From a virus (taxonomy: Duplodnaviria; Caudoviricetes): a stretch of 64,000 nt of DNA. Where the stretch lies: positions 13,731 to 77,730 of the IMG/VR virus record IMGVR_UViG_3300014205_000015; one strand, written 5' to 3'. Made by a program: the position numbers and the translations under genes. The notes beneath the pieces are model-generated. The model worked only from the letters and a program-made list of their open reading frames with translations, searched no databases and was not told where the DNA came from. Positions 3,685 through 47,851 of the stretch are shown here, piece after piece; the first letter of the stretch is position 1, and each line of letters begins with the position of its first letter.

Positions 3685-3722
3685 TATTCTTTCCTCCGGG
3701 TAGGGTTTCAACGGGTTTAGCT

Positions 3723-3779
3723 GCCTCGTCAGGTCATCCCCACTACGGGATAACTACGCCCACAAGTGAGCGTTTCGGC
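3723..3779 (-). ncRNA. type II hammerhead ribozyme
   Basis: GCC-GAAA-stem III (6 bp)-GUA-stem I (8 bp)-CUGACGA-GGC; complete catalytic core; intergenic. Confidence 0.9.
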
Positions 3780-3780
3780 T

Positions 3781-8450: not shown

Positions 8451-8911
8451 ACGTCCACAATTGTGGATAAGGACAACCCAGCTTAACATTCCAGGGATGT
8501 CCACAATTGTGGATACTCACCCCTCTTCTGCTAGAAACTATCGTTTTCTCAGGGGTTTAGCTACTTTCTCCATCGTAGAGTATAAAGCCAATGCACAATC
8601 CAGCCTCGGCACCAGGGCAGGGATGTAGCGTAGGGGCAGCGTGGTAGGTGGGGCTATGGGCGAGGGAGCGTAGGCGCGTGGGGCTGGGCGAGGGCTGAGA
8701 GCCTGTGCGTGTAGTGGTGCAGGGGACGATGGACAGCGCCAAGTGCATGGCTGCTGGCTTCGAGGGCGATGAGAGGCAGCAAGGGAAGGCGACCACATCG
8801 AAGGCGGACCTGGCATCGGAACGGAAAACGAACCGGACCGCCCCGCCCCCAGCGCGGGACTCCTTCTAATGTCCCTCTTATCTGCCAACCCAATTTCAGC
8901 GTCATCTCACC

Positions 8912-8940
8912 TAGCAAGTAACAGGCATATATGTTATACT
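8912..8940 (+). promoter_or_regulatory. sigma70-like promoter (TAGCAA-17 nt-TATACT, extended TG)
   Basis: Directly upstream of AGGAG and ATG 8947. Confidence 0.5.
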
Positions 8941-8946
8941 AGGAGC

Positions 8947-9849
8947 ATGAGCAAACCAATGCAGATTACCGCTGGCGACAAGTACGGGCGACTGACTGTT
9001 ATTCGCGAGGTTGACGCGAAGTATTCTGGTGGTCATCGCCAGAGGTGCGTGGAGTGCCGGTGTGAGTGTGGGGTGGTGAAGGAGTATCGGCTTTACACGA
9101 TTCGGAACGGGAACACTAAGTCGTGTGGGTGCTTGGCTAATGAAGTAGCTGGTGCGAATTTGCGGACGCATGGTCTTTCGGATCGAGAGGAGTATCGGAT
9201 TTGGCAGGGAATGCTTAATCGTTGCCGCAACGAGAATGAGGGCAACTACCACAATTACGGAGGTCGCGGGATTGCGGTGTGTGAGCGCTGGAAGGAATCG
9301 TTCGAGAAGTTTTTTGAGGATATGGGTCCACGTCCGTCTGTGAAGCACAGCATTGACCGCATTGACAATGACGGCAACTACGAGCCAGGCAATTGCCGGT
9401 GGGCGACATCGAAGGAGCAGTCTAGGAATAAGCGGGTCAATTATCTCGTATCGCATGATGGCGAAACCAAGTGTGTGTCGGAGTGGGCGGAGAAGCATGG
9501 TCTCAAGTCTTCAGTGCTTTACTATCGGCTGGTTAAGCTTGGGTGGACGTTTGAGAAGTCGGTTAGCTGGCCGTCATTTAACCGTTCTTCCGCTAGGTCT
9601 TGTAATCCGCATTACCGAGTTCCGATGAAGGAGCGGGATGCTTCATGGCAGCGAGAGCATGAGCGACTTGAGGTGATTCGCATTGCGAAAGATCGCCGAG
9701 AACTGGAGTCGTGCGGAGAAAGCTTAGCCAAGTCGCATCGACTGGACGCGAGCGAGTTTAAGTCTCGAGTGGATGCTGCGCTGGTCGAAGGCTGGACGTG
9801 GAAAGGCTCGGTTTTGCGTGCATTGCAAGAGATGGGCTCCGTTGAATAA
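8947..9849 (+). CDS. HNH homing-endonuclease-like protein
   Basis: GDKYGRLTV...CRCECG...KSCGC module, YGGRGIAVCERW, SIDRIDNDGNYEPGNCRWAT. Confidence 0.85.
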   Translation: MSKPMQITAGDKYGRLTVIREVDAKYSGGHRQRCVECRCECGVVKEYRLYTIRNGNTKSCGCLANEVAGANLRTHGLSDREEYRIWQGMLNRCRNENEGNYHNYGGRGIAVCERWKESFEKFFEDMGPRPSVKHSIDRIDNDGNYEPGNCRWATSKEQSRNKRVNYLVSHDGETKCVSEWAEKHGLKSSVLYYRLVKLGWTFEKSVSWPSFNRSSARSCNPHYRVPMKERDASWQREHERLEVIRIAKDRRELESCGESLAKSHRLDASEFKSRVDAALVEGWTWKGSVLRALQEMGSVE

Positions 9850-9890: not shown

Positions 9891-9964
9891 GGAGTCGGTA
9901 GCTCAGGGGTAGAGCAGCGGGGCATGTAATCCGCGGTTGATGGTTCGAATCCGTCCCGATTCCA
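9891..9964 (+). tRNA. atypical tRNA (Thr-UGU-like, 8-nt anticodon loop)
   Basis: GGAGTCGG/CCGATTCC acceptor, GCTC/GAGC D arm, GCGGG/TCCGC anticodon stem with loop GCATGTAA, GATGG-TTCGAAT-CCGTC T arm. Confidence 0.75.
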
Positions 9965-13789: not shown

Positions 13790-14260
13790 ATGAGCGAACG
13801 ATGGGACAATCATTTCTTGCGATTGTGTCAGGACCATGCAAGGATGTCGAAAGACCCAAGCACACGAGTTGGCGCTGTAATAGTCGGACCTGACGGGGAA
13901 ATTAGGTCGGCTGGATTCAACGGTTTCCCACGCGGAATTCTCGATAGCGACGAACGCCTGAACGACCGAGACACAAAGCTAAAGCTGATGGTCCACGGGG
14001 AAATGAACGCGATTTTAGCAGCTGCGAGAGTTGGGACGCCGGTGAAGGGATGCACGCTGTACCTCGCGGCTACTGATTCATCGGGGATTGTGTGGGGCGG
14101 TCCTCCGTGTGTGCGCTGTACAGTTGAAGTAATTCAGGCAGGCATAACAGAAGTGGTGTCTTACCCCAAACGCAGTGTTCCATCAAAATGGCATGAGGAT
14201 TTGGCAATGGCTGAAACTCTTTTACGTGAAGCGGGGATTGGTTACAGATGCGTCGATTAG
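13790..14260 (+). CDS. dCMP deaminase (cytidine/deoxycytidylate deaminase family)
   Basis: SKDPSTRVGAVIV, HGEMNAI, PCVRC zinc-binding motifs. Confidence 0.92.
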   Translation: MSERWDNHFLRLCQDHARMSKDPSTRVGAVIVGPDGEIRSAGFNGFPRGILDSDERLNDRDTKLKLMVHGEMNAILAAARVGTPVKGCTLYLAATDSSGIVWGGPPCVRCTVEVIQAGITEVVSYPKRSVPSKWHEDLAMAETLLREAGIGYRCVD

Positions 14261-14547: not shown

Positions 14548-14927
14548 GCCAAGCCGACGAATACATCCAGGAAGCACTGGAGCTAGCAGAGGACAATGCT
14601 GGTGACCGCTGCCCGCTGTCGTCCGATGCGTGTGGTGCATACTTCGAGCAGATACGGGACTTGTTACGGAAGGTGAGCGAAAACGCCGGACAGAACGTGA
14701 GCCAAGCCGATTCCGAGGAAATGCACACTGCCCTAGAGCAGATAGCAGCGCTAGCCCATCATGGTGGACTGATAGGATTCTCGGACGTAGACAAGTGCCT
14801 GAGAGAAGTACGGCGGATTTCGTTGAAGTGGTGGGACAAGAGCGAGTGTGCTAGGCTGCAAGAGGAAATAGACGCAGTTCCACCAGGGTTTTCAGATTCT
14901 TCGCACTTTCCTATTGACCCACAGTAG
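14544..14927 (+). CDS. hypothetical protein
   Basis: 127-aa ORF, ATGA overlap. Confidence 0.6.
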   Translation: MSQADEYIQEALELAEDNAGDRCPLSSDACGAYFEQIRDLLRKVSENAGQNVSQADSEEMHTALEQIAALAHHGGLIGFSDVDKCLREVRRISLKWWDKSECARLQEEIDAVPPGFSDSSHFPIDPQ

Positions 14928-14942
14928 CAAGCTGTATAAAGT
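14914..14942 (+). promoter_or_regulatory. sigma70-like promoter for the RAMP/array operon (TTGACC-17 nt-TAAAGT)
   Basis: Shares TTGACCCA and AGCAAG with the 12452 promoter. Confidence 0.55.
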
Positions 14943-14949
14943 ATTAAGT

Positions 14950-15018
14950 GTTGGCTCCCGGAAAAGACTCAACAATACAAACCGTCGATTTACTGTGCGT
15001 TTCTTTCCGGGAGCCAAC
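14950..15018 (+). repeat. 15-bp perfect inverted repeat in the leader
   Basis: GTTGGCTCCCGGAAA at 14950-14964 and TTTCCGGGAGCCAAC at 15004-15018. Confidence 0.85.
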
Positions 15019-15053
15019 GCAGTGATTCGGCGGTTTTTTATTGGAGTGATGCG

Positions 15054-15539
15054 ATGGCTATTGTTGAAAAAGCAAGAGTGAAATGGGCAGATAAAGAGGC
15101 GGCAATTCGGTCGCTCGAGTCTGGCGGTAAAATCGACCCACTGGATTTGATTGAAGCCGCTCGCGATCCTGAACATCCGTGTCACTCTGATTTCACTTGG
15201 GACATCGACCAAGCGGCTGCCGAACGGTGGCGGGATCAAGCCCGTGAGTTGATTCGCTCGTGCAAGTTTGAAGTGCGAGTGGAAGACGTAGGCAGCAGGG
15301 TTTGCATGTACGTTCCATCTGGCGACGAAGATGCAACATTCGTGTCACTACCAAAGATTCGCAGCAAGGCTCAGGCGTCTGCGGTTGTTCTAGCGGAGGT
15401 TGCCATGTTGCTTGGGAATGCTTCTCGGGCATACGGGATAGCGTTGTCGAAAACGAACATTGTTGGCGCTGACGTTGTTGTTCAGTTGAAAGCGATTCGC
15501 GAACTGGTGGCTACGCTGAAGGCTGAGCTAGAGGATTGA
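15054..15539 (+). CDS. partner protein of the RAMP/array locus
   Basis: LIEAARDPEHPCHSDFTWDIDQAAAERWRDQARELIR motif; lies immediately upstream of array 1. Confidence 0.8.
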   Translation: MAIVEKARVKWADKEAAIRSLESGGKIDPLDLIEAARDPEHPCHSDFTWDIDQAAAERWRDQARELIRSCKFEVRVEDVGSRVCMYVPSGDEDATFVSLPKIRSKAQASAVVLAEVAMLLGNASRAYGIALSKTNIVGADVVVQLKAIRELVATLKAELED

Positions 15540-15545
15540 TTCATT

Positions 15546-15863
15546 GGTCAAGGAATGTCGGGGCGTGGTTCGGCGTGGTGTTTCAGGTTTCGGTATGCTT
15601 GGGCGGTCATGGAGAGGTCGGGCTAGGTGCGCTCTTGCGAGTCGAGTCGAGGCGGTCGAGTCCGTGCGGGGTGCGGAGTGCTCTGGTTGGGTCGGTCCAG
15701 GTTGGGTTCGGCGGTCGCGGTTAGGAATGGCGTGCTGCGGCGAGTCGGGGCTCGTTCCGGTTGGGCGGTCAAAGTGGGTCAAGGCTTGGTGCGAAGTGGT
15801 GCGTCCTGGAAAGGCGGTCGAGGCGGGGATTGGAGTGGCCCGTATTGGTCCGACAAGGCGGTC
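15546..15863 (+). repeat. pentamer-coded array 1: six units of GGTC+(NN-GGY-like)x8-11; putative guide RNAs
   Basis: Units start at 15546, 15605, 15654, 15713, 15767 and 15816; lengths 59, 49, 59, 54, 49, 44 (all 5n+4). Confidence 0.9.
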
Positions 15864-15951: not shown

Positions 15952-16716
15952 ATGGCAAAAGCATCTGGTGTTTTGGAAGCGATTGAAGTTGAACCACTAC
16001 GAGTTGGCAGTATGCAAGTCTGGCTGCGTGGTATCACGCCGCTGATCTGTAATCGATTGGCGGCAAAGGCACGGCGCGAGCTGTTGCTTCCGAAGGGACG
16101 AAAGTCGACGGCGGAAAAGCAGCAATCGCTGAAGCATGATCCGGTAGCTGAGTTCCGAGACAGCATGAATGTGCGATCTGGTGTTGGACCTACACGAGTA
16201 GTGTTTCCTGCGCCCGCAGTGAAGGGTTCTATGGCTACTGCCGCGCTGGAGACGAAAGGCACGAACAAAACGCAGATTGGTCGTTTGGTTCGTGTGGCTG
16301 GTTATTCACTGGATGTCTACGGAATACCAGAATTATTCATGGCTATTGTTCGTTCGGCGGACATGGCTCGGACGCCCGACGTTCGGACGCGAGCGATCTT
16401 GCGCGAGTGGTGCATGCCTGTTACCGTTCAGTACGTCAAGCCGCAGATGTCTGAGCAGGCTATTATGCAATTGCTTGCCAACGGCGGAATTATCATCGGA
16501 GTAGGTGATTTTCGTCAAGAAAAAGGCAAAGGCGATTTTGGCTGCTACGAGGTCGTCACCGAAGCCGATTGTAAGGACATTATCAAAAATGGCGGGTTGA
16601 AGCAGCAAGACGCTGCGATCAAGACTCCCGTCTGCTTCGACAGTGACACTGAAGAACTTTTAGGCTGGTTCCAACAGGAAGTTAAAGTTAGAGGAAAGGG
16701 AGAACTGGTTGCCTAA
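15952..16716 (+). CDS. RAMP/Cas7-like RNA-binding protein (Vipr-like effector)
   Basis: N-terminal VWLRGITPLICN strand and C-terminal Gly-rich loop GIIIGVGDFRQEKGKGDFGCYEV; flanked by pentamer arrays. Confidence 0.75.
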   Translation: MAKASGVLEAIEVEPLRVGSMQVWLRGITPLICNRLAAKARRELLLPKGRKSTAEKQQSLKHDPVAEFRDSMNVRSGVGPTRVVFPAPAVKGSMATAALETKGTNKTQIGRLVRVAGYSLDVYGIPELFMAIVRSADMARTPDVRTRAILREWCMPVTVQYVKPQMSEQAIMQLLANGGIIIGVGDFRQEKGKGDFGCYEVVTEADCKDIIKNGGLKQQDAAIKTPVCFDSDTEELLGWFQQEVKVRGKGELVA

Positions 16717-16725
16717 CTGTCAATT

Positions 16726-17376
16726 GGTCGCGGAGAGGTATGGCAACATAAGTCACGGTCCGGCGAGTCATGTCCGGGCGGTCATGGAATGGTTGGGCAC
16801 GGCACCATATGGTATGTCGCGGCTTGGCGTGGCGGTCCCGGTTGGGTCCGGTAAAGCTGGTCGGGGCGGGGTGTTGCGAGCCCGGGTTTGGCGGTCGGGG
16901 TACGGTTCGGCACGGCGGGTCGGAGCATGGAATGTTGCGGCGGTCGCGTCGAGGTGCGGTGCGTTTGGGCGAGTCCAGGCGCGTCGGGGTATGGTTGGGC
17001 GGTCGAGGTGAGGAAAGGCTGCGCTAGTTCAGGCGAGTCATGGCACTGGCGGTCGCGGTATGTCCTGACTAGTCATGTGAGGAAAGGCGAGGCGGGGCGG
17101 TCGAGTCGGGTCTTGGAGAGGTTCGGTCCGTTGCGGTCTGTCCGGGCGGTTTGTCAAAGCTAGGCTGCGCGTGGCGGTCATGGTGACGAGAGGCTGGGTA
17201 TGGTACGTCGCGGCGGGTCTGGGGCCGGTGAGGCGGTCAAGATTCGTCAGGTCGCGGACAGGCGGGGCGGGGTACGCTTAGGCGGGCCTAGTCCTGGCGG
17301 TCGCGTCGGGGTCTGGAGTGGCACGGTCGGGCAAGGTGAGTCGAGCTCTGGCGTGGTGAGTATCGGCAAGCCGGTC
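16726..17376 (+). repeat. pentamer-coded array 2: twelve units of GGTC+(NN-GGY-like)n; putative guide RNAs
   Basis: Units start at 16726, 16780, 16834, 16893, 16942, 17001, 17051, 17099, 17148, 17176, 17235 and 17299; three units (17001, 17051, 17148) carry 1-nt irregularities. Confidence 0.9.
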
Positions 17377-17415
17377 GTGATTGACTGTTAAGAGGTCATG
17401 CAGCACAATTGCTGC

Positions 17416-19329
17416 ATGACCTCTCCTTTTTTTGATTTAGTCCCAAAAGACCCAATTGAGAATCTCCGTTGGCGCATTCGTTGCCGCGAGCGTGCATTGG
17501 CTGATAAGCGGTTTCGAGACTCGCTATATCAAGCGTGCATGAGTGATCTTTGTTTCTGGATGGCATTTGCCTGTTGGGGATACGACCCGCGAGCCCGCTT
17601 CAAGATCGTTCCATTTGTACCCTATCCACATCAACAAGCTGTGTTCGTGGCGATGGATGAAGCCATAAGCACTGCCGAACGTGAAGAACGATCGGTCGAC
17701 GTGATCCTGGACAAAAGTCGGGCTCAAGGTGGATCTTTTGGATATCTTTGGGTCGACCTTCGGCGCTGGCTGCGCGATCCAATGTTTTCAGCAGGTTTTG
17801 TTACGAAAAATGAAGATTCGATTGATTCAAAGAGCGACTCATCGACGGTGCTGTGGAAAGTGGCATGGGCGATTGAGCGATTGCCTTTCTGGATGAAGCC
17901 CAATTACGAACGGCATCTTGGTCAGCACACTTTCATTAACAACGACAACGGTTCGTTATTGCGAGGATACTCTGCAGGGCAAGACGTGGCAGCCGGTGGC
18001 CGTACGACTGTGTTCACAGTGGACGAAGCTGGCGCGAGAGACTTCGTTTCAGGTGGCAAAGACGAAGCGGTTCAGGAGTCTATTCAAGACGTGTCCAACT
18101 GCATTCGCATGGTCTCTGCTCGTTACGTGGATGCAGGTGTCTTTCACGAAGCCTGCGAAAACCCAGACACGAAAAAGAACGGTATTCATCTTATACTGGA
18201 CTGGAAAGACCACCCCGCTCAAAGCAAGCACTCTTACATTGTGCGAGAGGGAATCGCGGTTGCCATAAAGCCGGAAGATCAAGCGGCGGTCACGGAATAC
18301 CACCGAAAACACCCTGACCTGCGATCCCGACTGGAAAGAAAAGGATTTAAATTTGAAGTGGTTGTTCGCAGTCCGTGGTACGACTCTCGATGTTTGCGCC
18401 CGACAGCCACCCCGCGACTGATAGCTTCGCAGCTCGACCGCAACCCTCGCGGAGCAGTAGGTAAAGTTTTCGCATCAGACCTCTTGGACCGCATGAAGCG
18501 AGAGCACTGCAAGGGTCCAGTTTGGGTGGGCAATCCAGTATTTGACTCAGAAACCTGCAAACTAACGGGATTGATTCCCAGGGATGACGGCTTGCTGAAA
18601 CTGTGGTTCAAGCCGGGCATCGACAACTCACCGCCGCTGGGACCGTTCACCGCGGGATGCGACATCGCTTCGGGTGGAGTTGGGGCGTATTCCTCAAACT
18701 CGGTCATAACGGCGCTGGACGACAGAACCGGGGAGCAAGTCTTGGAGTACACGGTCAAGGGACTCGAGCCACGACCGTTTGCACGCCGGGTGGTTGGGCT
18801 GTGCATGTGGCTTAGAAACGCACTGCTTGGCTGGGAGGATTCCGGGGTGTCTGGTGGTTTTGCTAAGGAAATCATGGAAGTTCTTTATTATGGTTCCGTG
18901 TTCTATCGGGACGTAAACCAGCTCGGTTCCCAGAAGAAAAGCCGCAAGCCTGGCTGGCCGTGCCGTGACGCAGACAAAGCGGACGATTTTGAGCAAATGG
19001 CGCTGGCGATGGAGACTGGGAAGTTCGTTCCGCGTTCCGAGGAAATGATTGTCGAGTGTTCTGAATATGAGTGGGACGGCACCAAAATCATTCACGCACC
19101 GTCGAAAAACAAGGGGGCGGCTGACAAGAATCACGCCGACCGCGCTATAGCAATGGCAGGCTGTTGGAAGGTCTTTAGCACCGATAATGCAACCCGTAAG
19201 ATTGACACAGACGTGGAAAACGGTCAGAATCCAGAGTACGGCTCGTTTTTATGGCGAGAGCAGCAAGAGCGCCGGAACGTGAAAACGGGTAGCCCGAAGT
19301 TCGGGATTAGGGACATTATTGGACGCTAA
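17416..19329 (+). CDS. terL: terminase large subunit
   Basis: DKSRAQGGS Walker A-like, VDEAG Walker B, GCDIASG and HADRAIA RNase H-fold acidic motifs; lies upstream of portal and capsid. Confidence 0.9.
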   Translation: MTSPFFDLVPKDPIENLRWRIRCRERALADKRFRDSLYQACMSDLCFWMAFACWGYDPRARFKIVPFVPYPHQQAVFVAMDEAISTAEREERSVDVILDKSRAQGGSFGYLWVDLRRWLRDPMFSAGFVTKNEDSIDSKSDSSTVLWKVAWAIERLPFWMKPNYERHLGQHTFINNDNGSLLRGYSAGQDVAAGGRTTVFTVDEAGARDFVSGGKDEAVQESIQDVSNCIRMVSARYVDAGVFHEACENPDTKKNGIHLILDWKDHPAQSKHSYIVREGIAVAIKPEDQAAVTEYHRKHPDLRSRLERKGFKFEVVVRSPWYDSRCLRPTATPRLIASQLDRNPRGAVGKVFASDLLDRMKREHCKGPVWVGNPVFDSETCKLTGLIPRDDGLLKLWFKPGIDNSPPLGPFTAGCDIASGGVGAYSSNSVITALDDRTGEQVLEYTVKGLEPRPFARRVVGLCMWLRNALLGWEDSGVSGGFAKEIMEVLYYGSVFYRDVNQLGSQKKSRKPGWPCRDADKADDFEQMALAMETGKFVPRSEEMIVECSEYEWDGTKIIHAPSKNKGAADKNHADRAIAMAGCWKVFSTDNATRKIDTDVENGQNPEYGSFLWREQQERRNVKTGSPKFGIRDIIGR

Positions 19330-38402: not shown

Positions 38403-39800
38403 ATGCCAATAACATTCAGACACCAAGCAGCCGGGGTAGTACCTCCTTCCAATGAGACTACTAGGAAGTATGGGCAGTCGCTTGTCTTACAGCAGCAGCA
38501 ACAGAAGTATGCCGGTCAACAAGCAGGATACGACCGATTGTTCCGAGCTGGTTCGCAGCTGCAGCAGCAGGACTGGCAGATGGGCAGGGATAAGGCGCAG
38601 AACGACTTCCAGTTGGGCAGGGACAAGCAGCAGTTCGATTGGAAGCAGCAAGAGGCGGAAGCGGCTAGGCAGCAAGGGTTTCTCGACGAGGCTAGGAAAC
38701 AGAGCAGCCGATTCATTCTTGACGCGATTGACAAAGGGGAGTTTGACCCTGGTACTGCCCGAGAGCTACGGCAGAATCTGGTAGCCGAGTCAGAGGTGCT
38801 AGGCAATCCGCGACTGGACGCCACGCAGAGAGCCGAAGCGATTCAGAAGCTTCGTGCGCAGCGGTCAATGCTGTTAGCCAATCGCGCTCCAAAGGCACCA
38901 GAGCCAACACCACAGGAACAATTCGACCAGGGTGTTGTTACAGGTCCAGATGGCGCAAAGTATCGTCGTAACTCAAAGGGAGACTTCGAGCCTCTACCAG
39001 TACAACCTCAGCAACCAGCACCACCAGCGACCGCTGATGATGCGTTTAAGGCTGACCCTAAACTGAGGAAACAGTACATTGATGACGCGGTAAACGTACT
39101 CACAGAAGGCGGAACGAAGTCGCTTACTGTCGATATTCGCAAGCAAGCCGCCGAACTGGCAAGGGAACTGTACGACAACGACAACCCGCAACCAGCACAG
39201 ACGCCAGCTACCACACCTGCTGCTGGGCAAGCCCCACCCGCTGCATCAGGAGCCTTTTCGCCATTACTGAGTGCGATTCAGGGTGCTGCGGCTGGAATAA
39301 CGGGGCAGACCCCTGCTACTATTGGGCAGTCAGCGGACATACCAATAGCATCTCCAGATCCAGGCCGACCGCCAGCACCATCGACAATGCCCGCGCAAAA
39401 CCAGTGGGCGGACGTGGCAACACCACCGCCACCGGCACAAGTTTCGCCATCGCCACCACTGAGTTCGCCTGCCGGAGCGAGTCCACAGCAGGCTCCAGCT
39501 ACATCGCAAAGCGGACTACCACAAGCTGAAAAGCCAGACTTTGGCGCTATGGTAGCCAGTGCAAAGGACGATGCAGACAGAGCGTTCGTCAGCAAGATGC
39601 AAGGTGTGTACGAGGGGCAGTCGCCTGCTATTCAGTCTGCAATAAGTGTCCTTATGAGCCCAGACTCGCTTGACGAGGATGCTGCACGCGCTCTTGCGTA
39701 TCTAAAGGAAAATGGCATTGATATTGACCAACTGGCTGCGACTCCGAAGCTACCGAAGAAGAAAAGCAACAGGGATTGGCAGAGCGGAAAGGGAATGTAG
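38403..39800 (+). CDS. putative internal virion protein (Gln/Pro/Ala-rich)
   Basis: Precedes the giant protein; low-complexity helical sequence. Confidence 0.65.
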   Translation: MPITFRHQAAGVVPPSNETTRKYGQSLVLQQQQQKYAGQQAGYDRLFRAGSQLQQQDWQMGRDKAQNDFQLGRDKQQFDWKQQEAEAARQQGFLDEARKQSSRFILDAIDKGEFDPGTARELRQNLVAESEVLGNPRLDATQRAEAIQKLRAQRSMLLANRAPKAPEPTPQEQFDQGVVTGPDGAKYRRNSKGDFEPLPVQPQQPAPPATADDAFKADPKLRKQYIDDAVNVLTEGGTKSLTVDIRKQAAELARELYDNDNPQPAQTPATTPAAGQAPPAASGAFSPLLSAIQGAAAGITGQTPATIGQSADIPIASPDPGRPPAPSTMPAQNQWADVATPPPPAQVSPSPPLSSPAGASPQQAPATSQSGLPQAEKPDFGAMVASAKDDADRAFVSKMQGVYEGQSPAIQSAISVLMSPDSLDEDAARALAYLKENGIDIDQLAATPKLPKKKSNRDWQSGKGM

Positions 39801-39802
39801 CT

Positions 39803-42800
39803 ATGGGAACGATAACTGACAGAATAAGACGACTTGGCAGGCAGGATGCAGCCCCAAGTGAGGATGGCGCAGGTATTGGTCAAATCGATGAACGCGAGCA
39901 AGCTATTATCGACAGGTATACAAGTGCAGCGCCAGGCGTGAGCTTCTTGCAAAAAGCTGCCCGTGGGTCGGCTAAATTAGAAATAGATACTCGGCGACAG
40001 CAGCGAGCCTACGCCGAGAAACCAACGTCACCGCTCGCAGCTATAACGGTGGATCCAGCCAGGGAGATGGTTGCGAATCTTGGGGACCGAGCAAAGGTGC
40101 TCGACACCTACCGTAAGCTGTCACCTGAGCAGCGCCAGGAAGCATTGAGTTTGGCTCCTGGTATTGCACAGCAGTTAGGCGATGACCGAGGCGGAGTAGT
40201 TGGGCGTACTCTCGGCGCAGTAAGTCGTGGGATAAGTCATGGCGTATCGCAGCCACTCGCAGAGTTAGTTGGACTAGGCGGAACGCCAGAGGAGATTGAG
40301 TACATTCGCCAATTGGATGCGGCAGCGTCTCAAGAGTTTAGTCCTGCCCGTCCAGGCGACCCGTGGTATGAGCGTGGACCGCTACAAGCCGTGGAGATGG
40401 CTCCGTGGATGGCAACAGTGGTAGGCGGCGCTGGCGTAGGGCGTGCTGCGGCTACGGGGATTGCTGGGCGGCTTGGCATGGCAGCCCGTGGCACAGCGGC
40501 AGCCGCGAAGACTGGAGAGCTTGCGGGTATCACCACGGCAGCATTCCCCGGTCAGTACGCGCAAGAGGTGGACCAGCTTAAAGAACTGGGCATGGAAGAC
40601 GGGACGAACCTGCGCCTGCTTGCTGGCGGGACAGCGGCAATTGCTGGTCTTATTGAGGGAATCGTACCCAATCCGTTCAAGGCTGGACCCGTTCCGTTGA
40701 CCGAAGGGGCTGTTAAGGCTGCCCGTCAGTACCTCTGGGAAGCAGCTAAGAGGGCTCCTGGGGAAATGTCTGAAGAATACCTACAGGGCGTTACAAGCGG
40801 TCTGGGCAGCCATGTAGCGCAATACCTCGATGAGAATGCTGAGGATAGGTCAATCGCAGACGCATTCCAGACAGGCTGGGAACAAGCCAAAGAAGCAGCG
40901 CTACCAATGGCGTTCCTGCTTGGTGTTCCTGCTGTCGGCGGTGCTGGGCTATCGGCAGCGCGAGCACGGCGATTGACTCGTTTGCAAGAGGTTCTTGCTA
41001 AGGGACCAGTTTCCAGGAAAGCCGGTCGGGAACTTGGCATTGAAGGCAACCAGGATGAACGCACGGCGATAGCTGCCGCAGAGAAGGCACAGCTAGAGCA
41101 AGAAGCAGCTCAGGTCAGCGCAACACCACCACTAACACAGGGACCAACAGATGCCAGCCAAGTACCAGCGGATGAAGCACGCAATGATGTCCAAGGGGAT
41201 GGAGGAGAAGGAAGCCAAGTCGATAGCGGCAGCGAAGTATATCAGCCAGGGCAAGAGCAAGGAGTCTCGCAGCCAGAGAGCAAAGAGCCTGAAGCACAGG
41301 AAGTACAAGTAGCGCCATGGCAACAGACTCCCAGTGAATACGTTGCCGGCGAGACGGACGCAGATGCGGTAGCTGTCAGGAGGGCATCACACCCACAAGC
41401 TGTGAAGCGAGCGCTAACGGAAGGAGAGCAGGTTCCGCGTGCAGTGCTAGATGCTTATGCGAACAACACTTGGGCGAAGAAGGCTATCGAGCGGCTGTAT
41501 CCTAACGAGCCAGGGCAGTTACCTACAGAGCCAGAAGCAGCAGCCACTCCCCCAGTCGCTCCAGCTACAGAAGTATCGCAACAACCATCGGAGGGGTCAG
41601 TGTCCACAATTGTGGACAAAGCCGAGAAACTACCAGTACCAGCCACACCAGAGCAGGCAGAGCCAGCAGCAGTCCCAGGAAGTCGGTTTGCAGGCAAGTC
41701 TGATAAGGAACTAGCTTCTATTCAGCAAATGTACGAAGACAACATCAAGACTAAAAAAGCCAAGAATGAGAAAGTCTCGCCTGAATGGGAGCGAGGGCTT
41801 GATGAAGTCAGAGCATTACGGGCTGGAGCGGATCCACAAACAGAAATAGTGACGGATACTAGCGTCTATGGGCATCCACAAAACCCGTCGTCGCGAGAGG
41901 GGCACCAAAATCTAATCCCAATCAAATTTGGCGCTGATGCAGACTTAGCGTGGCGATGGGACGAGATTCAAAAGCGAGCAGCCGTTCTGATGGCTGAGAT
42001 AGGTGATGCGCAAAACCGGGCGTTGCGTGGCAAGACACCAGCGATACGCAAGAAGGCTTCTGACGAATTAAAGTCAGCTAATCATTCGGACAAGGAACAG
42101 GAACTCAAAGACCTGAAGGAAGCCCAGGCGTATCTCAATGAACTGAGTAAGAAACAGAGTGGACTAACTAAAAAGCAAGCAGTAGAGACAGGAAAGCCGT
42201 CGACGGCTGGGCTTTCGGAGGAAGTAATCGGTTCCCCGCCCGTTAGTCCCGACGCACTGGGGGAAACCCCAGAGACGAGTATGGGCAAAGCGGTAGGTAA
42301 TGAACTGCCCTCCGAAGCCCGCGCCGAGGAAACTGAGCCGCAGCAGCCTGACTCCAAGTGGCAGTCCGAAACCAGAACACTCCTAGAGGCTGTCCCAGCA
42401 CTCAAGGGCGCCAATGTCGAACCAGACGAGAAGGCTGGAACGGTCAAGGTAACACGCCCAGACGGGCTCTCTACGACGATTCACTTCAATGCCGATAAAG
42501 AACTGGCAGAAGCGGCTAAGTCGAAACTGCGCAATCCTGAGTCGATTCACGGCTGGTATGTACGGAAGCCAGGAGAAGCCGAGGGACGCATCTACGTGCG
42601 CTCCGACGCCAACCACAGCAACATCCTTAACCATGAAGTAATGCACTGGCTTGAAGATGAAGGTGTTGTAACCAAAGAGGAAGTCGAGAAGTACGGCGGA
42701 CGGGAAGCAATTGCCGAGAAGTACGGCAAATGGGCTGAGCTAAAGAAGCGGAAAAAGGATTCAGTGTTCCAGCGAATCTACGACACGCTAGAGCCAGTGT

Positions 42801-45800
42801 TCTCAGCACAGCGCAGATTCTTTGAGGATGTGTCTAAGCGGCAAGCAGCCGAGAAACCGTCCGAGAAGCGCCGTGGTCCTAAAGACCAGCCAGGGGCACG
42901 AAGGATGGAGCCCACGGAAGAAGGTCGACCTGCGGATGGAAAGCCGATAATGCCAGGGGACCGTTTCTTGACCAATACAGGTCGCGAAACAACGCCATAC
43001 CCCAAGTACAGCGGCGCTACGAATCGCCAAGTAATCAATGCTGAGAAGAAGTCACAGCTATGGCTGATTGAGAATGCTATCGCTGAGGCTGAGTCTCGCG
43101 GTGACGACTTCAACCTCACGACATTCCGAGGTGAGCTTGAGGATGCACGCAAAGGAAAACTCCCTCCAGCGTCAAAGGACTCTGCGACCCTCTACGTGTT
43201 TGGAGAGGACATCCCAAAGGTTCCTAAACCATTCCTGAAGGAGCCAGGGGCAAAACCACTTTCGTCCGCAACGGAACAGGCTCGGGAGAACCTTCGCAGG
43301 CGAGGTAAACGCAAGCCATCCCAGGCGGAACTGGACGCAGAAACAGCATCGGTGATTCGTGAGCGAGAGGCAGACAACAAGGTTCGTCAGGACTTCCAGT
43401 CGGACAGGGATGCCCAAAAAGCACAGGAAGCAAGGCGTGAGTTCGTCGGAAAGCAAAAGGCTGCTGCGAACCCAGCTACCGTCGATTCGCTCGGTTATGG
43501 CGACATCGCTCAGGTGAACGATGACATCGAACGCGGACGGGTGAGCTACGAAGACGCAATCAAAGTAGCAGACGCATTCGTGGAAGCGGGTTATCTTCCA
43601 CAGCTTCGTCGCGACCAGATCCGTAAGCCTACCCAAGCCAGTGCAAATCAAGTTAACGTCGATTCTGGCTCAGAAAGTAAAGTTAAGCCAGCAGAAGACC
43701 GTGTGAAAAATTTTACACAAGACTTACCTAGCTTAACACCGGAAGGGAAGGCTACTGGGAAACAAGTAGGGAACAAGCCAAAGCCAAAGCCAGAGCTAGC
43801 ACCTGACACGGCACGTATTCAGGCTGAGCGGGAAGCAAGGGAGCAAGCCAAGGCAGGGAAGAAACAGCGAGTGGCTCCAGAAGGGTACGCTGCGCTACCA
43901 GAGATGACTCGCGCAAAGTTCGAAACAGCATGGGATGGAAGCGACCAGCAAGCGATGAAGGACCTACTTCATTTGCCCAATAAGTCTCTGAGAGCTGAGT
44001 TCGAGCGGCGCACAGAACGCAAGCTACCGCGAACCATCAAGGGCACGTCAGAAGTTGTCGAGCAGGTTTATGCTGCGCGAGCCAAGCCAAGTGAAGCGGT
44101 AGGAGTGGAAGCGGAACCGAAAAACGAAGAAACACAGCCCGCCCCCGTTTCTGTCAAAGCCGACTTCATAGAGCTTAAAGGTCAGAACGCGACTGGAGTG
44201 AAGCAAACGATTCGGGTAATCGCTGGAGAACGCACGTTACTGATGGAACGCAGTAAGCACGACAGCGAGTGGTCGATTAGGGAAGGGACAAAGTACACCG
44301 GCGCAATCAAAGGCAAAACACCAGTAAAGACAGGCGGTGAAATCCTCGCTAGTGGGATTGGCGAAACCAAAAGAGCAAAGGAAGTCGCACAGCAGATTAT
44401 CGACGGCACTTTCGACAAGGACGCTGATAGTCTGTTTGTGCGAGAGGACACAAGAAACATTGGACTCCCTAATGCTAAGCTTGCCGCCGCAATAAAAGAT
44501 TACCAGATAGCAAGGCGAGGCAGTTTCGCCAAGTTGCTTCGTGAGGAAAGACTGTACACCGATGGTCGTTTGCTGATGAAAGTGAACGACAAGGACCGAG
44601 ACGCGATTCTGAAGGGGATTGGAGAGACTGACGAAGGCAGGGAGATGGGTGTCGTTGCGCAAATGATGGTCGACGGCAAGAAGGCGCTAAGTCGCTCAGC
44701 TAACGCCATGAAACCAATCGGATACCGTGGAGGCAACCTAACAACACGAACCGTTGTGCTTCAAAGCCAAGATGGCGATGCTGTAACCCTCGACAAGTCT
44801 TTACACGACACGGTTCTGAAAAAGCACCCCGACGCAGTGCCGTACTTCAGGGAAGAAGGTCGTCCGGTGTCCTACGCCAGTAACGACGACGTGGTGGCGA
44901 TTGTGATGCCGATGAACATGGACAAGCCAGACGCCAAATTAAAGGAGTTGGTGGCTGGTAAGTATGACTTCGAGGCTGAAGCCGCCGTAGAGGACGAGAC
45001 TGGCGATGGAGAGGGTGGCGCTGAGTTCGGGAAGGACGTTGGGTCGACGCTGGGAATCACGTCAGGCGTTCCGCTGGCTGGTCCACACCGAGGAATGGGG
45101 CGTTCTGTGCGGCATTTCTTCCAGCGGTTCTTTACCTCTCAGGGAGAACTTCCAGCTGACGTGTATGATGCAAAGGTACGGAAGGAAGGGCGGGCTGCCA
45201 AGGAAATGAACCGTCTTCGGAATCGCGCAACTGACCTCCGGCGTGGCATCAAGAAAGCCTTGAACGGCAGGGAATTGACTCAGGCAGATATCGAGAGAAT
45301 GAACGCCGTGCTTCGCGGAGAGAAGGCTATGACCACTGTGCCGGTAGCAGTACGCGCACCACTCAAAGCGATGCGAGACCACATTGATTCCCTATCAAGC
45401 CACTTGATTCTGGAAGGCGTGGCGCAAGGCGACTTAGTGGGAATCATCACGGAAAGCATGGGCGTCTATGCCACCCGGTCATATCGCGTATTCGACAACC
45501 CCAAGTGGCGCGACCAAGTTCCTAGTGCTGTTCGCAATCGTGCAGTAGCCGCTATTCGGGCGCTCGACCCATCCAAGTCTGACGCTGAGGTAGCAGGAAT
45601 CCTAGAATCGCTACTGTTCCGCGGTGCAGCAGATACCCCCGTGGCACTTCTGAAGGGTTCGAAGCTGGGAAGCAAGGACTTGAGCACGTTCATAGCACGA
45701 AAAGACATTCCGGAGTGGCTTCGGGACTTGTGGGGGGAGTACAAGGATGCTGGTGTGAATTACGCTCGCAGCGTGTTCAAGATGGCGCACTTGCTTGCCA

Positions 45801-47851
45801 ATCAACAGTTCTTAAATGAGGTACGAGACGCTGGGCTAGGCAAATGGCTTCGCACGGACGAGGAAGGACCAATCATCAACGAGTATGGCGAAATCATCAC
45901 GCCTATCGCAGCCGAGAGCAGTTCTGTCATGGAACCTCTAAACGGACTGCTCACTACGCCAGAAATAAAGAAAGCATTCGAGCGTTTCGATTCTCCTGGT
46001 GCCATGCCGGAGTGGCTGCGGGTGATGATGTCGGTGAATTACGCAGTCAAATACGGAAAGACCGTAGGGTCGGTAATGACGCACGTTCGTAATACTGTCT
46101 CTAACGTAGGGTTCGCAGTAGCCAACGGGCACTGGCGGCTTAGTAAGGCTGGAAGGGCGGTGTGGGGCACAGCGACAGGAACATTCCAGCTTTCTGATGC
46201 AAAGTTCCGTGAATACTACAACCGACTCGCAGAACTGGGGATTGTTGGAGAAGACGTTCGAGCTGGCGAGCTAAAGGATGCGCTGCGGGACGCTTCGCAG
46301 GCAGATATCGACGAGTTCCTGTATAACCGCGAAGCGCGCCACGCAAAGAGGTTGGTCGGCATGGGGAGGGCTGGATTCAGGTTCCTAAACTCCCTATACC
46401 AAGCCGAGGATGGCGTTTGGAAAATCTACGCATGGGAGAACGAGAAGGCTCGCTACGCCAAGGCGTATCCAGGATGGTCGGAGCAGAAGGTTGAGGAGCA
46501 CGCAGCCAATATTGTCCGAAACACCTATCCGACATACAGCAAGATCCCTGAAGCGATTAAAGCGCTTCGTCGGTTCCCGTTAGTTGGTACGTTTGTCAGC
46601 TTCCCGTCTGAGGTGGTTCGAACGACGTTCCACACTGTCGCGCTGGGCGTTGAGGAGATGCAATCGCCGGAAACACGGGCTATTGGAGCGCAAAGACTGG
46701 CTGGTACAGTGATGTCCATTGGAATACTGTCTGTGTTATCCCGCGCCATGATGGCGATGTACGGTATTGATGATGACGAGGACGAGGACTTGAGGTGGTT
46801 TGTTCCTCCGTGGCAGGAGAATAGCCGATTCGTCTACCTTAACAAGCCGCAGGACGCCACGTTCCATTTTGTAGACTTGGGCTACTCCGACCCGCACGCA
46901 TACCTCACTGACTCCGTGGTTGCGTTCATGCGAGGTGGCGACTGGAAGGACAGGCTAGGGAAAGCTACTGCGGAATTCCTTAGTCCATTTGCGTCGGAAG
47001 AGATATTAGCAAAGGCTCTAATGGACCTACGCAGTAATGCTGGCGACAAGATTTACAACACAAGGGATGAGATTGGGGAGCAGGCTAAGGATATTGTTGC
47101 GCATCTGTGGACCAGTGCTCTGGAACCAGGGACCGTTTCATCGGTGCGTCGAATCGTAACAGCCATAGGAGGAACTGACCCATCCAAGAGCGTGCGGGAT
47201 GAAGTTTTAGCCGTCGCGACTGGGCAGCGACTACAGAAAGTCGATGTCGAGCATTCTCTTGGATTCCGTGCCAGGGACTTCGGTAAGACGCTGACTCAGA
47301 TTCAAGGTATTGCCCGCAAGACTGTCACCTCGCGCGGAACAGCCACCGGCGCAATGGTCGCAACTGACTTGGCCCGCATGGAGAGGCTGCGGCTTGCGGC
47401 GTTTTCGGAAATGCAGCAGATCGCTGGGGCAGCGAGACGACTGGGTGTACCAGAGGAGTCTATTCGGACGATGTTGACTGCGGAACTGCCGGACGATGTT
47501 GCGGAACAGTTGATGACGGGTGACTATTCATCCTACGAGATGACGCCCGAGACAGTGCGACAGATGATGGACGCGAAGCCGGAGGAATTTATGCAACGTT
47601 TCTCCGCATGGCACGGACAACGGACGCCAGAGGCGATACGGTCATACGTTGGCCAGAGGCTTGCAAATAGCGAGCCAGCTGATATTAAGGGCGAACTGGA
47701 TTTGCTGGGAATTACGCTTGAGGAGTGCAAGCAGGCACTGAAGGATTACTGGAAGTTTCGAGAGTGGCCGATAAGTGAAAAAGGCATAATGGTAGACGCT
47801 TTGCAGAAAAGGTTTCGGAAACTGGAGGCACTTTACAAAACCGAGAACTAA
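39803..47851 (+). CDS. giant (2682-aa) multi-domain internal virion / large polyvalent-type protein
   Basis: Size, position, N-terminal hydrophobic Ala/Gly helices, helical C-terminal region. Confidence 0.75.
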   Translation: MGTITDRIRRLGRQDAAPSEDGAGIGQIDEREQAIIDRYTSAAPGVSFLQKAARGSAKLEIDTRRQQRAYAEKPTSPLAAITVDPAREMVANLGDRAKVLDTYRKLSPEQRQEALSLAPGIAQQLGDDRGGVVGRTLGAVSRGISHGVSQPLAELVGLGGTPEEIEYIRQLDAAASQEFSPARPGDPWYERGPLQAVEMAPWMATVVGGAGVGRAAATGIAGRLGMAARGTAAAAKTGELAGITTAAFPGQYAQEVDQLKELGMEDGTNLRLLAGGTAAIAGLIEGIVPNPFKAGPVPLTEGAVKAARQYLWEAAKRAPGEMSEEYLQGVTSGLGSHVAQYLDENAEDRSIADAFQTGWEQAKEAALPMAFLLGVPAVGGAGLSAARARRLTRLQEVLAKGPVSRKAGRELGIEGNQDERTAIAAAEKAQLEQEAAQVSATPPLTQGPTDASQVPADEARNDVQGDGGEGSQVDSGSEVYQPGQEQGVSQPESKEPEAQEVQVAPWQQTPSEYVAGETDADAVAVRRASHPQAVKRALTEGEQVPRAVLDAYANNTWAKKAIERLYPNEPGQLPTEPEAAATPPVAPATEVSQQPSEGSVSTIVDKAEKLPVPATPEQAEPAAVPGSRFAGKSDKELASIQQMYEDNIKTKKAKNEKVSPEWERGLDEVRALRAGADPQTEIVTDTSVYGHPQNPSSREGHQNLIPIKFGADADLAWRWDEIQKRAAVLMAEIGDAQNRALRGKTPAIRKKASDELKSANHSDKEQELKDLKEAQAYLNELSKKQSGLTKKQAVETGKPSTAGLSEEVIGSPPVSPDALGETPETSMGKAVGNELPSEARAEETEPQQPDSKWQSETRTLLEAVPALKGANVEPDEKAGTVKVTRPDGLSTTIHFNADKELAEAAKSKLRNPESIHGWYVRKPGEAEGRIYVRSDANHSNILNHEVMHWLEDEGVVTKEEVEKYGGREAIAEKYGKWAELKKRKKDSVFQRIYDTLEPVFSAQRRFFEDVSKRQAAEKPSEKRRGPKDQPGARRMEPTEEGRPADGKPIMPGDRFLTNTGRETTPYPKYSGATNRQVINAEKKSQLWLIENAIAEAESRGDDFNLTTFRGELEDARKGKLPPASKDSATLYVFGEDIPKVPKPFLKEPGAKPLSSATEQARENLRRRGKRKPSQAELDAETASVIREREADNKVRQDFQSDRDAQKAQEARREFVGKQKAAANPATVDSLGYGDIAQVNDDIERGRVSYEDAIKVADAFVEAGYLPQLRRDQIRKPTQASANQVNVDSGSESKVKPAEDRVKNFTQDLPSLTPEGKATGKQVGNKPKPKPELAPDTARIQAEREAREQAKAGKKQRVAPEGYAALPEMTRAKFETAWDGSDQQAMKDLLHLPNKSLRAEFERRTERKLPRTIKGTSEVVEQVYAARAKPSEAVGVEAEPKNEETQPAPVSVKADFIELKGQNATGVKQTIRVIAGERTLLMERSKHDSEWSIREGTKYTGAIKGKTPVKTGGEILASGIGETKRAKEVAQQIIDGTFDKDADSLFVREDTRNIGLPNAKLAAAIKDYQIARRGSFAKLLREERLYTDGRLLMKVNDKDRDAILKGIGETDEGREMGVVAQMMVDGKKALSRSANAMKPIGYRGGNLTTRTVVLQSQDGDAVTLDKSLHDTVLKKHPDAVPYFREEGRPVSYASNDDVVAIVMPMNMDKPDAKLKELVAGKYDFEAEAAVEDETGDGEGGAEFGKDVGSTLGITSGVPLAGPHRGMGRSVRHFFQRFFTSQGELPADVYDAKVRKEGRAAKEMNRLRNRATDLRRGIKKALNGRELTQADIERMNAVLRGEKAMTTVPVAVRAPLKAMRDHIDSLSSHLILEGVAQGDLVGIITESMGVYATRSYRVFDNPKWRDQVPSAVRNRAVAAIRALDPSKSDAEVAGILESLLFRGAADTPVALLKGSKLGSKDLSTFIARKDIPEWLRDLWGEYKDAGVNYARSVFKMAHLLANQQFLNEVRDAGLGKWLRTDEEGPIINEYGEIITPIAAESSSVMEPLNGLLTTPEIKKAFERFDSPGAMPEWLRVMMSVNYAVKYGKTVGSVMTHVRNTVSNVGFAVANGHWRLSKAGRAVWGTATGTFQLSDAKFREYYNRLAELGIVGEDVRAGELKDALRDASQADIDEFLYNREARHAKRLVGMGRAGFRFLNSLYQAEDGVWKIYAWENEKARYAKAYPGWSEQKVEEHAANIVRNTYPTYSKIPEAIKALRRFPLVGTFVSFPSEVVRTTFHTVALGVEEMQSPETRAIGAQRLAGTVMSIGILSVLSRAMMAMYGIDDDEDEDLRWFVPPWQENSRFVYLNKPQDATFHFVDLGYSDPHAYLTDSVVAFMRGGDWKDRLGKATAEFLSPFASEEILAKALMDLRSNAGDKIYNTRDEIGEQAKDIVAHLWTSALEPGTVSSVRRIVTAIGGTDPSKSVRDEVLAVATGQRLQKVDVEHSLGFRARDFGKTLTQIQGIARKTVTSRGTATGAMVATDLARMERLRLAAFSEMQQIAGAARRLGVPEESIRTMLTAELPDDVAEQLMTGDYSSYEMTPETVRQMMDAKPEEFMQRFSAWHGQRTPEAIRSYVGQRLANSEPADIKGELDLLGITLEECKQALKDYWKFREWPISEKGIMVDALQKRFRKLEALYKTEN

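Follow-up and report, generated by a model that had tools for sequence, protein, structure and literature searches.

The locus described here raises a single question: which gene is addressed by a phage guide whose pairing bases spell the catalytic motif of a patatin-like lipase, and could that gene belong to a host defence? The guide was found in a 64-kb stretch of viral DNA, called the window below. The complete virus record measures 77,730 bp with direct terminal repeats, and the locus is phage-borne. Its gene order is a 161-aa vap-like gene, a first array of guide RNAs (vrRNAs), the vipr gene and a second array, after which come the terL and portal genes. The main features are the following:

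14914-14942, plus strand: putative promoter-like site (TTGACC, 17 nt, TAAAGT) 5' of the locus, from a consensus scan only
15054-15539, plus strand: vap-like accessory gene, 161 aa, phrog_15946 (PHROG match, 3e-14)
15546-15860, plus strand: vrRNA array 1, six staggered units, each with GGTC and 8-11 NN-GKY pentamers
15952-16716, plus strand: vipr gene, 254 aa, phrog_4652, its predicted product resembling a lone Cas7-like RAMP
16726-17372, plus strand: vrRNA array 2, about 12 staggered units
17145-17175, plus strand: non-periodic element GGTTTGTCAAAGCTAGGCTGCGCGTGGCG of about 29 nt inside array 2, common to two relatives (L091:2628-2656 and L094:2985-3010)
17391-17434, plus strand: intrinsic terminator closing array 2, with a 15-bp stem and a T-run

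The promoter-like site is followed, before the vap-like gene begins, by a 15-bp inverted repeat, GTTGGCTCCCGGAAA ... TTTCCGGGAGCCAAC, which surrounds a loop of about 40 nt (14949-15022). At the other end of the locus, the longest terL ORF begins with an ATG located inside the array 2 terminator hairpin (17398-17430), and the true start is probably more downstream. Elsewhere, the phage carries genes for an HNH endonuclease (8869-9849; phrog_374, 1e-68), a tRNA (9892-9963) and a dCMP deaminase (13790-14260; PF00383, 1.6e-16), as well as a 2691-aa ORF (39776-47851). No tyrosine integrase was detected in the phage genome, and the lifestyle is probably virulent. When sequencing runs were searched, a landfill metagenome, which may be the source sample, was the only one to contain the whole stretch, and no RNA sequencing run contained it.

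Both arrays are G-rich, non-coding and periodic over 5 nt on the plus strand. The autocorrelation of G at lag 5 is 0.23-0.31, with values of 0.31/0.21/0.22 at lags 5/10/15. Each unit is made of GGTC followed by 8-14 NN-G-K-Y pentamers, which gives lengths of 4+5n (44, 49, 54, 59 and 64 nt), and a spacer of a single base lies between neighbouring units (GGC-G-GTC). A chain parser recovered only two such arrays within the 64 kb, and Rfam contains no family that matches them. A TRAP-like protein-binding array, a pac site and G-quadruplex DNA were considered and dropped in view of the matches in codon phase, the Cas7-like fold and the published VIPR work described below.

The content of the arrays varies strongly among relatives. 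In loci with a 77-97% identical Vipr, the NN sets are almost entirely different, and the triplets are kept. Array 2 spans 680 nt here (16716-17398), as against about 310 nt in L091 (2504-2818; Vipr 97% identical) and about 220 nt in L094 (2885-3104; Vipr 90% identical), and whole guides come and go quickly. The GGTTTGTCAAAGCTAGGCTGCGCGTGGCG element is kept in these relatives although all surrounding guides differ; its candidate roles are those of a tail, of a signal or site for processing, or of a promoter within the staggered array. In addition, three consecutive units in 17001-17134 have single-base indels that break the pentamer frame (lengths 50, 48 and 36). These may be decaying guides or reflect another unit boundary.

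Neither the 254-aa nor the 161-aa ORF gave a Pfam match, and both fall in PHROG families of unknown function. The AF2 model of the 254-aa Vipr (pLDDT 80.8, from a 16-sequence alignment) retrieved 38 Foldseek matches at E<=1e-3, nearly all of them Csm3/Cas7 proteins, the best being subunits of type III and VII complexes (E 2e-5). VIA-align gave Z scores from 8.7 to 7 against Csm3, Cmr4, Cas7-11 and Csf2, a Z of about 8 being moderate and indicative of the fold level only. As modelled, the protein resembles a lone Cas7-like RAMP. It has 1482 homologues in metagenomes, and pentamer arrays adjoin the gene in 14/14 IMG/VR loci encoding a homologue (40-89% identity). By tblastn against 50,697 phage records, Vipr matched only hypothetical proteins of Gordonia phages (24% identity), without detectable similarity to Escherichia phage records.

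A homologue of the 161-aa ORF stands beside vipr in 28 related loci. The AF2 model of this accessory protein is mostly helical (pLDDT 86.9). It has no fold match in the PDB at E<=1e-3, nor one that would tell among vap1-6, and PADLOC gave no match. A reading as a winged-helix-type regulator was set aside, the top fold rows reaching only E ~0.7. No nuclease domain was detected in it. As the accessory protein has neither a nuclease domain nor a significant fold match, silencing rather than cleavage is the default expectation.

These components correspond to those of VIPR (Viral Interference Programmable Repeat), as presented in three preprints (bioRxiv 10.64898/2026.04.26.720920, 10.64898/2026.04.26.720927 and 10.64898/2026.10.15.759431). 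VIPR comprises a lone Cas7-like Vipr, vrRNAs in which GGY alternates with NN, and a vap accessory gene (10.64898/2026.04.26.720920). According to the VIPR preprints of 2026, Vipr protomers polymerise along the RNA, bury the GGY-like triplets and present the NN. The NN pair with double-stranded DNA, every third base, usually the wobble, being skipped, and Vipr binding inside a coding sequence silences transcription (10.64898/2026.04.26.720920). According to the legend of fig. S18 of the VIPR paper, adjacent vrRNAs overlap by 1 nt in staggered arrays, a description with which the spacer and the 4+5n lengths observed here agree. This shared architecture places the locus within VIPR. Hence, the locus is a VIPR system, and the assumption of a new system made in companion descriptions of this DNA does not stand. 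The minus strand also carries, at 3715-3780, a hammerhead ribozyme of type II (Rfam RF02276, 50.6 bits, E 1.8e-7); it is 11 kb away from the VIPR locus, which is on the other strand, and no pentamer array is close to it. Hammerhead-interspersed vrRNA arrays are a known VIPR arrangement, according to the VIPR paper.

The coding logic of the guides was examined by comparing the NN series of each unit with every position of the window, for target periods from 2 to 6 and with 100 order-shuffles as control. Only period 3 gave matches beyond all 100 shuffles. The 1-nt skip of VIPR thus holds in this locus, as seen in the period-3 matches to terL and in two guides with 59 and 19 exact in-frame matches in IMG/VR. 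The gapped, wobble-skipping reading proposed in the preliminary description is this published rule (bioRxiv 10.64898/2026.04.26.720920). The units of array 2 most relevant to the question are:

16726-16779, plus strand: first unit of array 2, vipr-like, matching codons 136-145 of the resident vipr at 15/20
16834-16892, plus strand: unit with the NN code PCP(K/N)CGGVDRF, that of a primase-helicase zinc ribbon
16893-16941, plus strand: nine-repeat vrRNA unit of array 2, its NN code that of the patatin nucleophile elbow
17235-17372, plus strand: last two units of array 2, terL-like, with in-frame, colinear matches to the resident terL

The unit at 17235 matches terL 17713-17748 at 19/24 positions (79.2%), and the unit at 17299 matches terL 17791-17832 at 22/28 (78.6%), in both cases just below the 80% cut-off used by the VIPR authors to call targets. 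Such sub-80% self-matches fit guides directed at relatives and not at self; the margin could result from self-avoidance. Neither of the two guides had an exact match in IMG/VR. When they are compared with L002:5230 and L091:2660-2729, the differences are CG versus AG at an arginine and CT/TA/TT at an aromatic/aliphatic position. From these comparisons, the terL guides appear to follow the protein-level variation of the rivals' terL. For the vipr-like unit, the match to the resident vipr is not significant alone (p ~0.4); an identical unit in a relative (L001) matches that relative's own vipr at 16/18 (p <0.01).

For the zinc-ribbon unit, IMG/VR gave 19 exact matches, on contigs of 41-59% GC. 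Each is in frame and falls on the GPCP(N/K)CGGVDRF zinc ribbon (GPCPNCGGVDRFW) of a primase-helicase of about 640 aa, a conserved motif of other viruses. The target ORFs contain Zn_Ribbon_Prim with Toprim and AAA_25, or Zn_Ribbon_Prim with DUF5906 and Pox_D5. The matches of this sister guide indicate that guides of the array do sit on conserved motifs. The unit at 17177 had no exact match in IMG/VR, which leaves its reading as an AlpA/excisionase guide, put forward in a companion description, without support.

The unit at 16893-16941 reads GGTC followed by GGGGT ACGGT TCGGC ACGGC GGGTC GGAGC ATGGA ATGTT GCGGC. It is fully in frame, with canonical boundaries at both ends, and is very probably a genuine vrRNA unit. 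Its NN are GG AC TC AC GG GG AT AT GC, exactly the set listed in the preliminary description; placed at the first two positions of codons, they encode G T S T G G (I/M) (I/M) A, so that the two positions formerly given as I read I/M. No patatin gene is present in the window, as had been stated, nor anywhere else in the 77,730-bp genome.

The search pattern GGNACNTCNACNGGNGGNATNATNGC holds the nine NN under the 1-nt skip rule and specifies 18 bases. It gave 59 exact matches in IMG/VR, 59/59 of which are in frame in patatin-like ORFs of about 300-400 aa reading (F)D(L)(I)(A)GTSTGG(I/M)(I/M)A. The GC content of the matched contigs goes from 0.19 to 0.67; it is because wobble positions are ignored that one 18-base guide matches lipase genes at 19% to 67% GC. 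The reversed pattern, a composition-matched control, had no match in IMG/VR.

Could a G-rich string of nine dinucleotides resemble a common motif by chance, its true target, if any, being elsewhere? About 17 units were inspected, among which the best-looking decoding could be picked, GG is frequent among the NN, only 18 bases are specified, and the best match of the guide within the window itself, 15/18, is unremarkable. Against this, the contrast between 59 matches and none for the reversed pattern is sharp, and the same catalytic motif is hit, in frame, at every match. Moreover, the patterns of two other guides had no match and that of a third had 19 in a single family, which indicates that multi-hit patterns mark conserved motifs, not noise. 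Chance is very unlikely, and the decoding is real. The guide is nevertheless an isolated one. When 322 units from 30 VIPR loci were decoded, none besides this one gave GxSxG, and the pentamer form of the guide was found nowhere else in IMG/VR or in JGI metagenome contigs; patatin thus does not recur as a target.

What kind of patatin-like genes are matched? Among the 59 IMG/VR matches, 39 full-length target ORFs were used for profile searches and alignment, and G-T-S-T-G-G is invariant in the alignment of these 39 targets. The PADLOC models for the CBASS "Effector: Phospholipase" (PDLC00757/758) matched 39/39 (best 2.4e-113), as did, at E<=1e-5, the NCBIfam model NF041079 CBASS_lipase (CBASS cGAMP-activated phospholipase). 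In a sample of ten targets, four were above the 200-bit curated equivalog cut-off of NF041079, and the others scored 164-198 bits. The NCBIfam matches of the targets included no family of housekeeping patatins. Judged by these profiles, the predicted target genes are of the CapV/CBASS type and not housekeeping. The gapped search suggested in the preliminary description thus returned exact matches in patatin genes only, none of them housekeeping.

Around the targets, we looked for CD-NTase cyclase genes among same-strand ORFs of at least 150 aa within about 2.6 kb, and found such a neighbour in only 8-9 of the roughly 43 IMG/VR targets examined. Other neighbours include a GAF-PAS histidine kinase, a type I methylase, an M78/HTH regulator and, on several contigs of 270-280 kb, a non-specific endonuclease in place of the cyclase. 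These contexts bring forward another reading, in which the target would be a patatin-like gene of another element (a rival or jumbo phage, a prophage or a satellite), and the guide a weapon of competition between elements and not a means to disarm the immunity of the host. All 59 exact matches come from a collection of viral contigs, further guides of this array are directed at terL, vipr and primase-helicase, which are phage genes, and the natural VIPR targets reported so far (satellites, prophage regulators and other VIPR systems) are all mobile elements. On the other hand, IMG/VR holds proviruses with host flanks, so that the label "viral" leaves host islands possible, and a CBASS borne by a prophage is still a defence, so that the two readings overlap. 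To these points is added the location of the only exact match in the candidate host phylum, to which we now turn.

The nearest homologues of Vipr in species-representative genomes lie on MAG contigs of Planctomycetaceae and Thermoguttaceae (73, 73 and 61% identity), which makes a planctomycete host likely. Accordingly, on the basis of protein similarity, the host is likely to be found in the Planctomycetota. The three MAGs with these homologues contain no match to GGNACNTCNACNGGNGGNATNATNGC at <=1 mismatch. In 401 Planctomycetota genomes, the pattern matches exactly in one and the control pattern in none. The matched gene is a patatin (Pfam Patatin, 4e-27) that scores 224.6 bits against CBASS_lipase. 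It stands directly downstream of a CD-NTase cyclase gene (PADLOC 6.7e-62), and a Gabija GajA gene (3e-212) is located about 1.4 kb from it. From its gene content, the matched gene belongs to a CBASS operon that lies within a defence island and looks chromosomal, which speaks against a guide dedicated to rival elements; a target confined to such elements is, in our opinion, rather unlikely. Whether the matches sit in CBASS or other defence islands, as the preliminary description asked, can be answered for a part of them: the 8-9 IMG/VR loci beside a cyclase and the genome operon near GajA do, and no cyclase was seen beside the rest within the neighbourhood covered.

The guide also comes close to some other planctomycete lipases. 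CapV-like genes were found in nine genomes of a 151-genome Planctomycetota sample. Together with the exact match, these make ten CapV-like loci, which agree with the guide at 18, 17, 17, 15, 15, 14, 14, 13, 13 and 11 of 18 positions, at least 15/18 being reached in 5/10. The mismatches mostly arise from AGC serine codons, and lipases with an AGC serine score 13-15/18.

The history of the unit can be followed in L091, a relative from another sample, in which the array 2 containing the patatin unit is much shorter and differs in the rest of its content. Between L091 and the present phage, 0/18 NN positions of this unit have changed, as against 8/27 scaffold positions (Fisher p = 0.014). In the terL-directed units, by contrast, the NN are not the same in the two phages. 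Such a pattern is the one that would be expected if the NN of the patatin unit were held by an invariant target, and it is not expected of a neutral string, a further argument against chance resemblance. It is likely that selection keeps the unit 16893-16941 matched to CapV-like lipase genes.

The unit could also be a relic, which once matched its target and is now no longer processed, no longer loaded or too short. The vrRNAs of VIPR are composed of 9-16 pentamers (10.64898/2026.04.26.720920), so that the patatin guide, with nine repeats, is at the published minimum; its neighbours in 17001-17134 have lost the pentamer frame, and array content turns over fast between relatives. However, the unit itself is perfectly in frame between canonical boundaries, and its NN have remained unchanged in the differently composed array of L091. 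In addition, SUSP1 vrRNA4, whose 18-bp footprint covers conserved codon positions in the recombinase gene of a satellite, is functional in vivo (10.64898/2026.10.15.759431). A non-functional remnant is thus an improbable explanation.

Overall, we consider it rather probable that 16893-16941 is a guide of a phage VIPR system directed at a CapV/CBASS-type lipase gene, the expression of which it would lower. The guide would lead the Vipr filament onto the lipase gene in the host chromosome, in a defence island or in a resident mobile element; Vipr binding would then reduce lipase expression, and the benefit for the phage would be a weakened abortive-infection response. Since the guide reads, within the catalytic serine motif, just the bases that determine the codons, many lipase alleles would be covered and synonymous escape would be impossible. 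Whether the unit works as an anti-defence device against a host or island CBASS is a more tentative proposition, which we regard as plausible though still doubtful. At least as tentative is the broader scenario, in which a virulent phage would use one guide to shut down CBASS-type phospholipase genes across many alleles and hosts.

The timing of infection, in a phage that is probably virulent, speaks against this proposed function. CBASS effectors are usually present before infection and, as they are made beforehand, silencing that began after entry would leave the pool of lipase intact. Some CBASS operons are transcriptionally induced by infection. An infection-induced CBASS operon, or a lipase encoded by a co-resident element, would rescue the logic of silencing. 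In the published in vivo example, VIPR silences a gene that is newly expressed during infection (10.64898/2026.10.15.759431).

If the anti-defence function were true, it would be the first RNA-guided anti-CBASS mechanism, and the role of VIPR would be widened from war between mobile elements to suppression of host immunity. A guide on the catalytic codons of an immune effector would add a new class of VIPR targets, and counter-defence would here be RNA-guided and exerted at the level of the gene, whereas the anti-CBASS factors known so far are proteins that inhibit the signal. If silencing fails, the locus is still a well-resolved staggered-array VIPR locus of a probable planctomycete phage, and the case shows the logic of the gapped code clearly.

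Compared with the VIPR systems already described, the locus shares a phage-encoded lone Cas7-like RAMP, GGY/NN pentamers, a small accessory gene, targets in codon phase, guides on rivals' vipr and on conserved catalytic codons, and a staggered array. It differs from type II VIPR (SUSP1, P. fulva), in which vrRNAs of about 100 nt end in a pseudoknot tail, by units of 44-64 nt without a tail on each. The words patatin, CBASS, phospholipase and anti-defence are absent from the main texts of the VIPR discovery and competition preprints. The system itself is known, and the target class, an immune effector, may be new to it.

Outside VIPR, phage-encoded RNA-guided repression of a host gene has a precedent in TldR, which acts on flagellin; TldR (PMC13418256) is reported to derive from TnpB/Cas12; it uses contiguous guides, is carried by temperate phages and has a non-immune target, in all of which it is unlike the present system. 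An RNA-guided system turned by a phage against a host-resident anti-phage element is the other point of comparison.

Vibrio phage ICP1 reportedly directs a CRISPR-Cas system against the PLE island, an observation said to go back to Seed and colleagues in 2013. The ICP1 system is a canonical type I-F CRISPR-Cas with contiguous spacers, which destroys DNA and has a satellite as its target. Unlike it, the guide described here is gapped, would presumably silence, and has as target a single effector motif across a protein family. As for CBASS, the protein factors Acb1 and Acb2 act after infection on the cyclic-nucleotide signal, which is degraded by the former and sequestered by the latter. The end result proposed here, escape from CBASS-triggered death, is the same; unlike Acb1 and Acb2, the guide would act on the DNA of the effector gene, and protein already made would stay.
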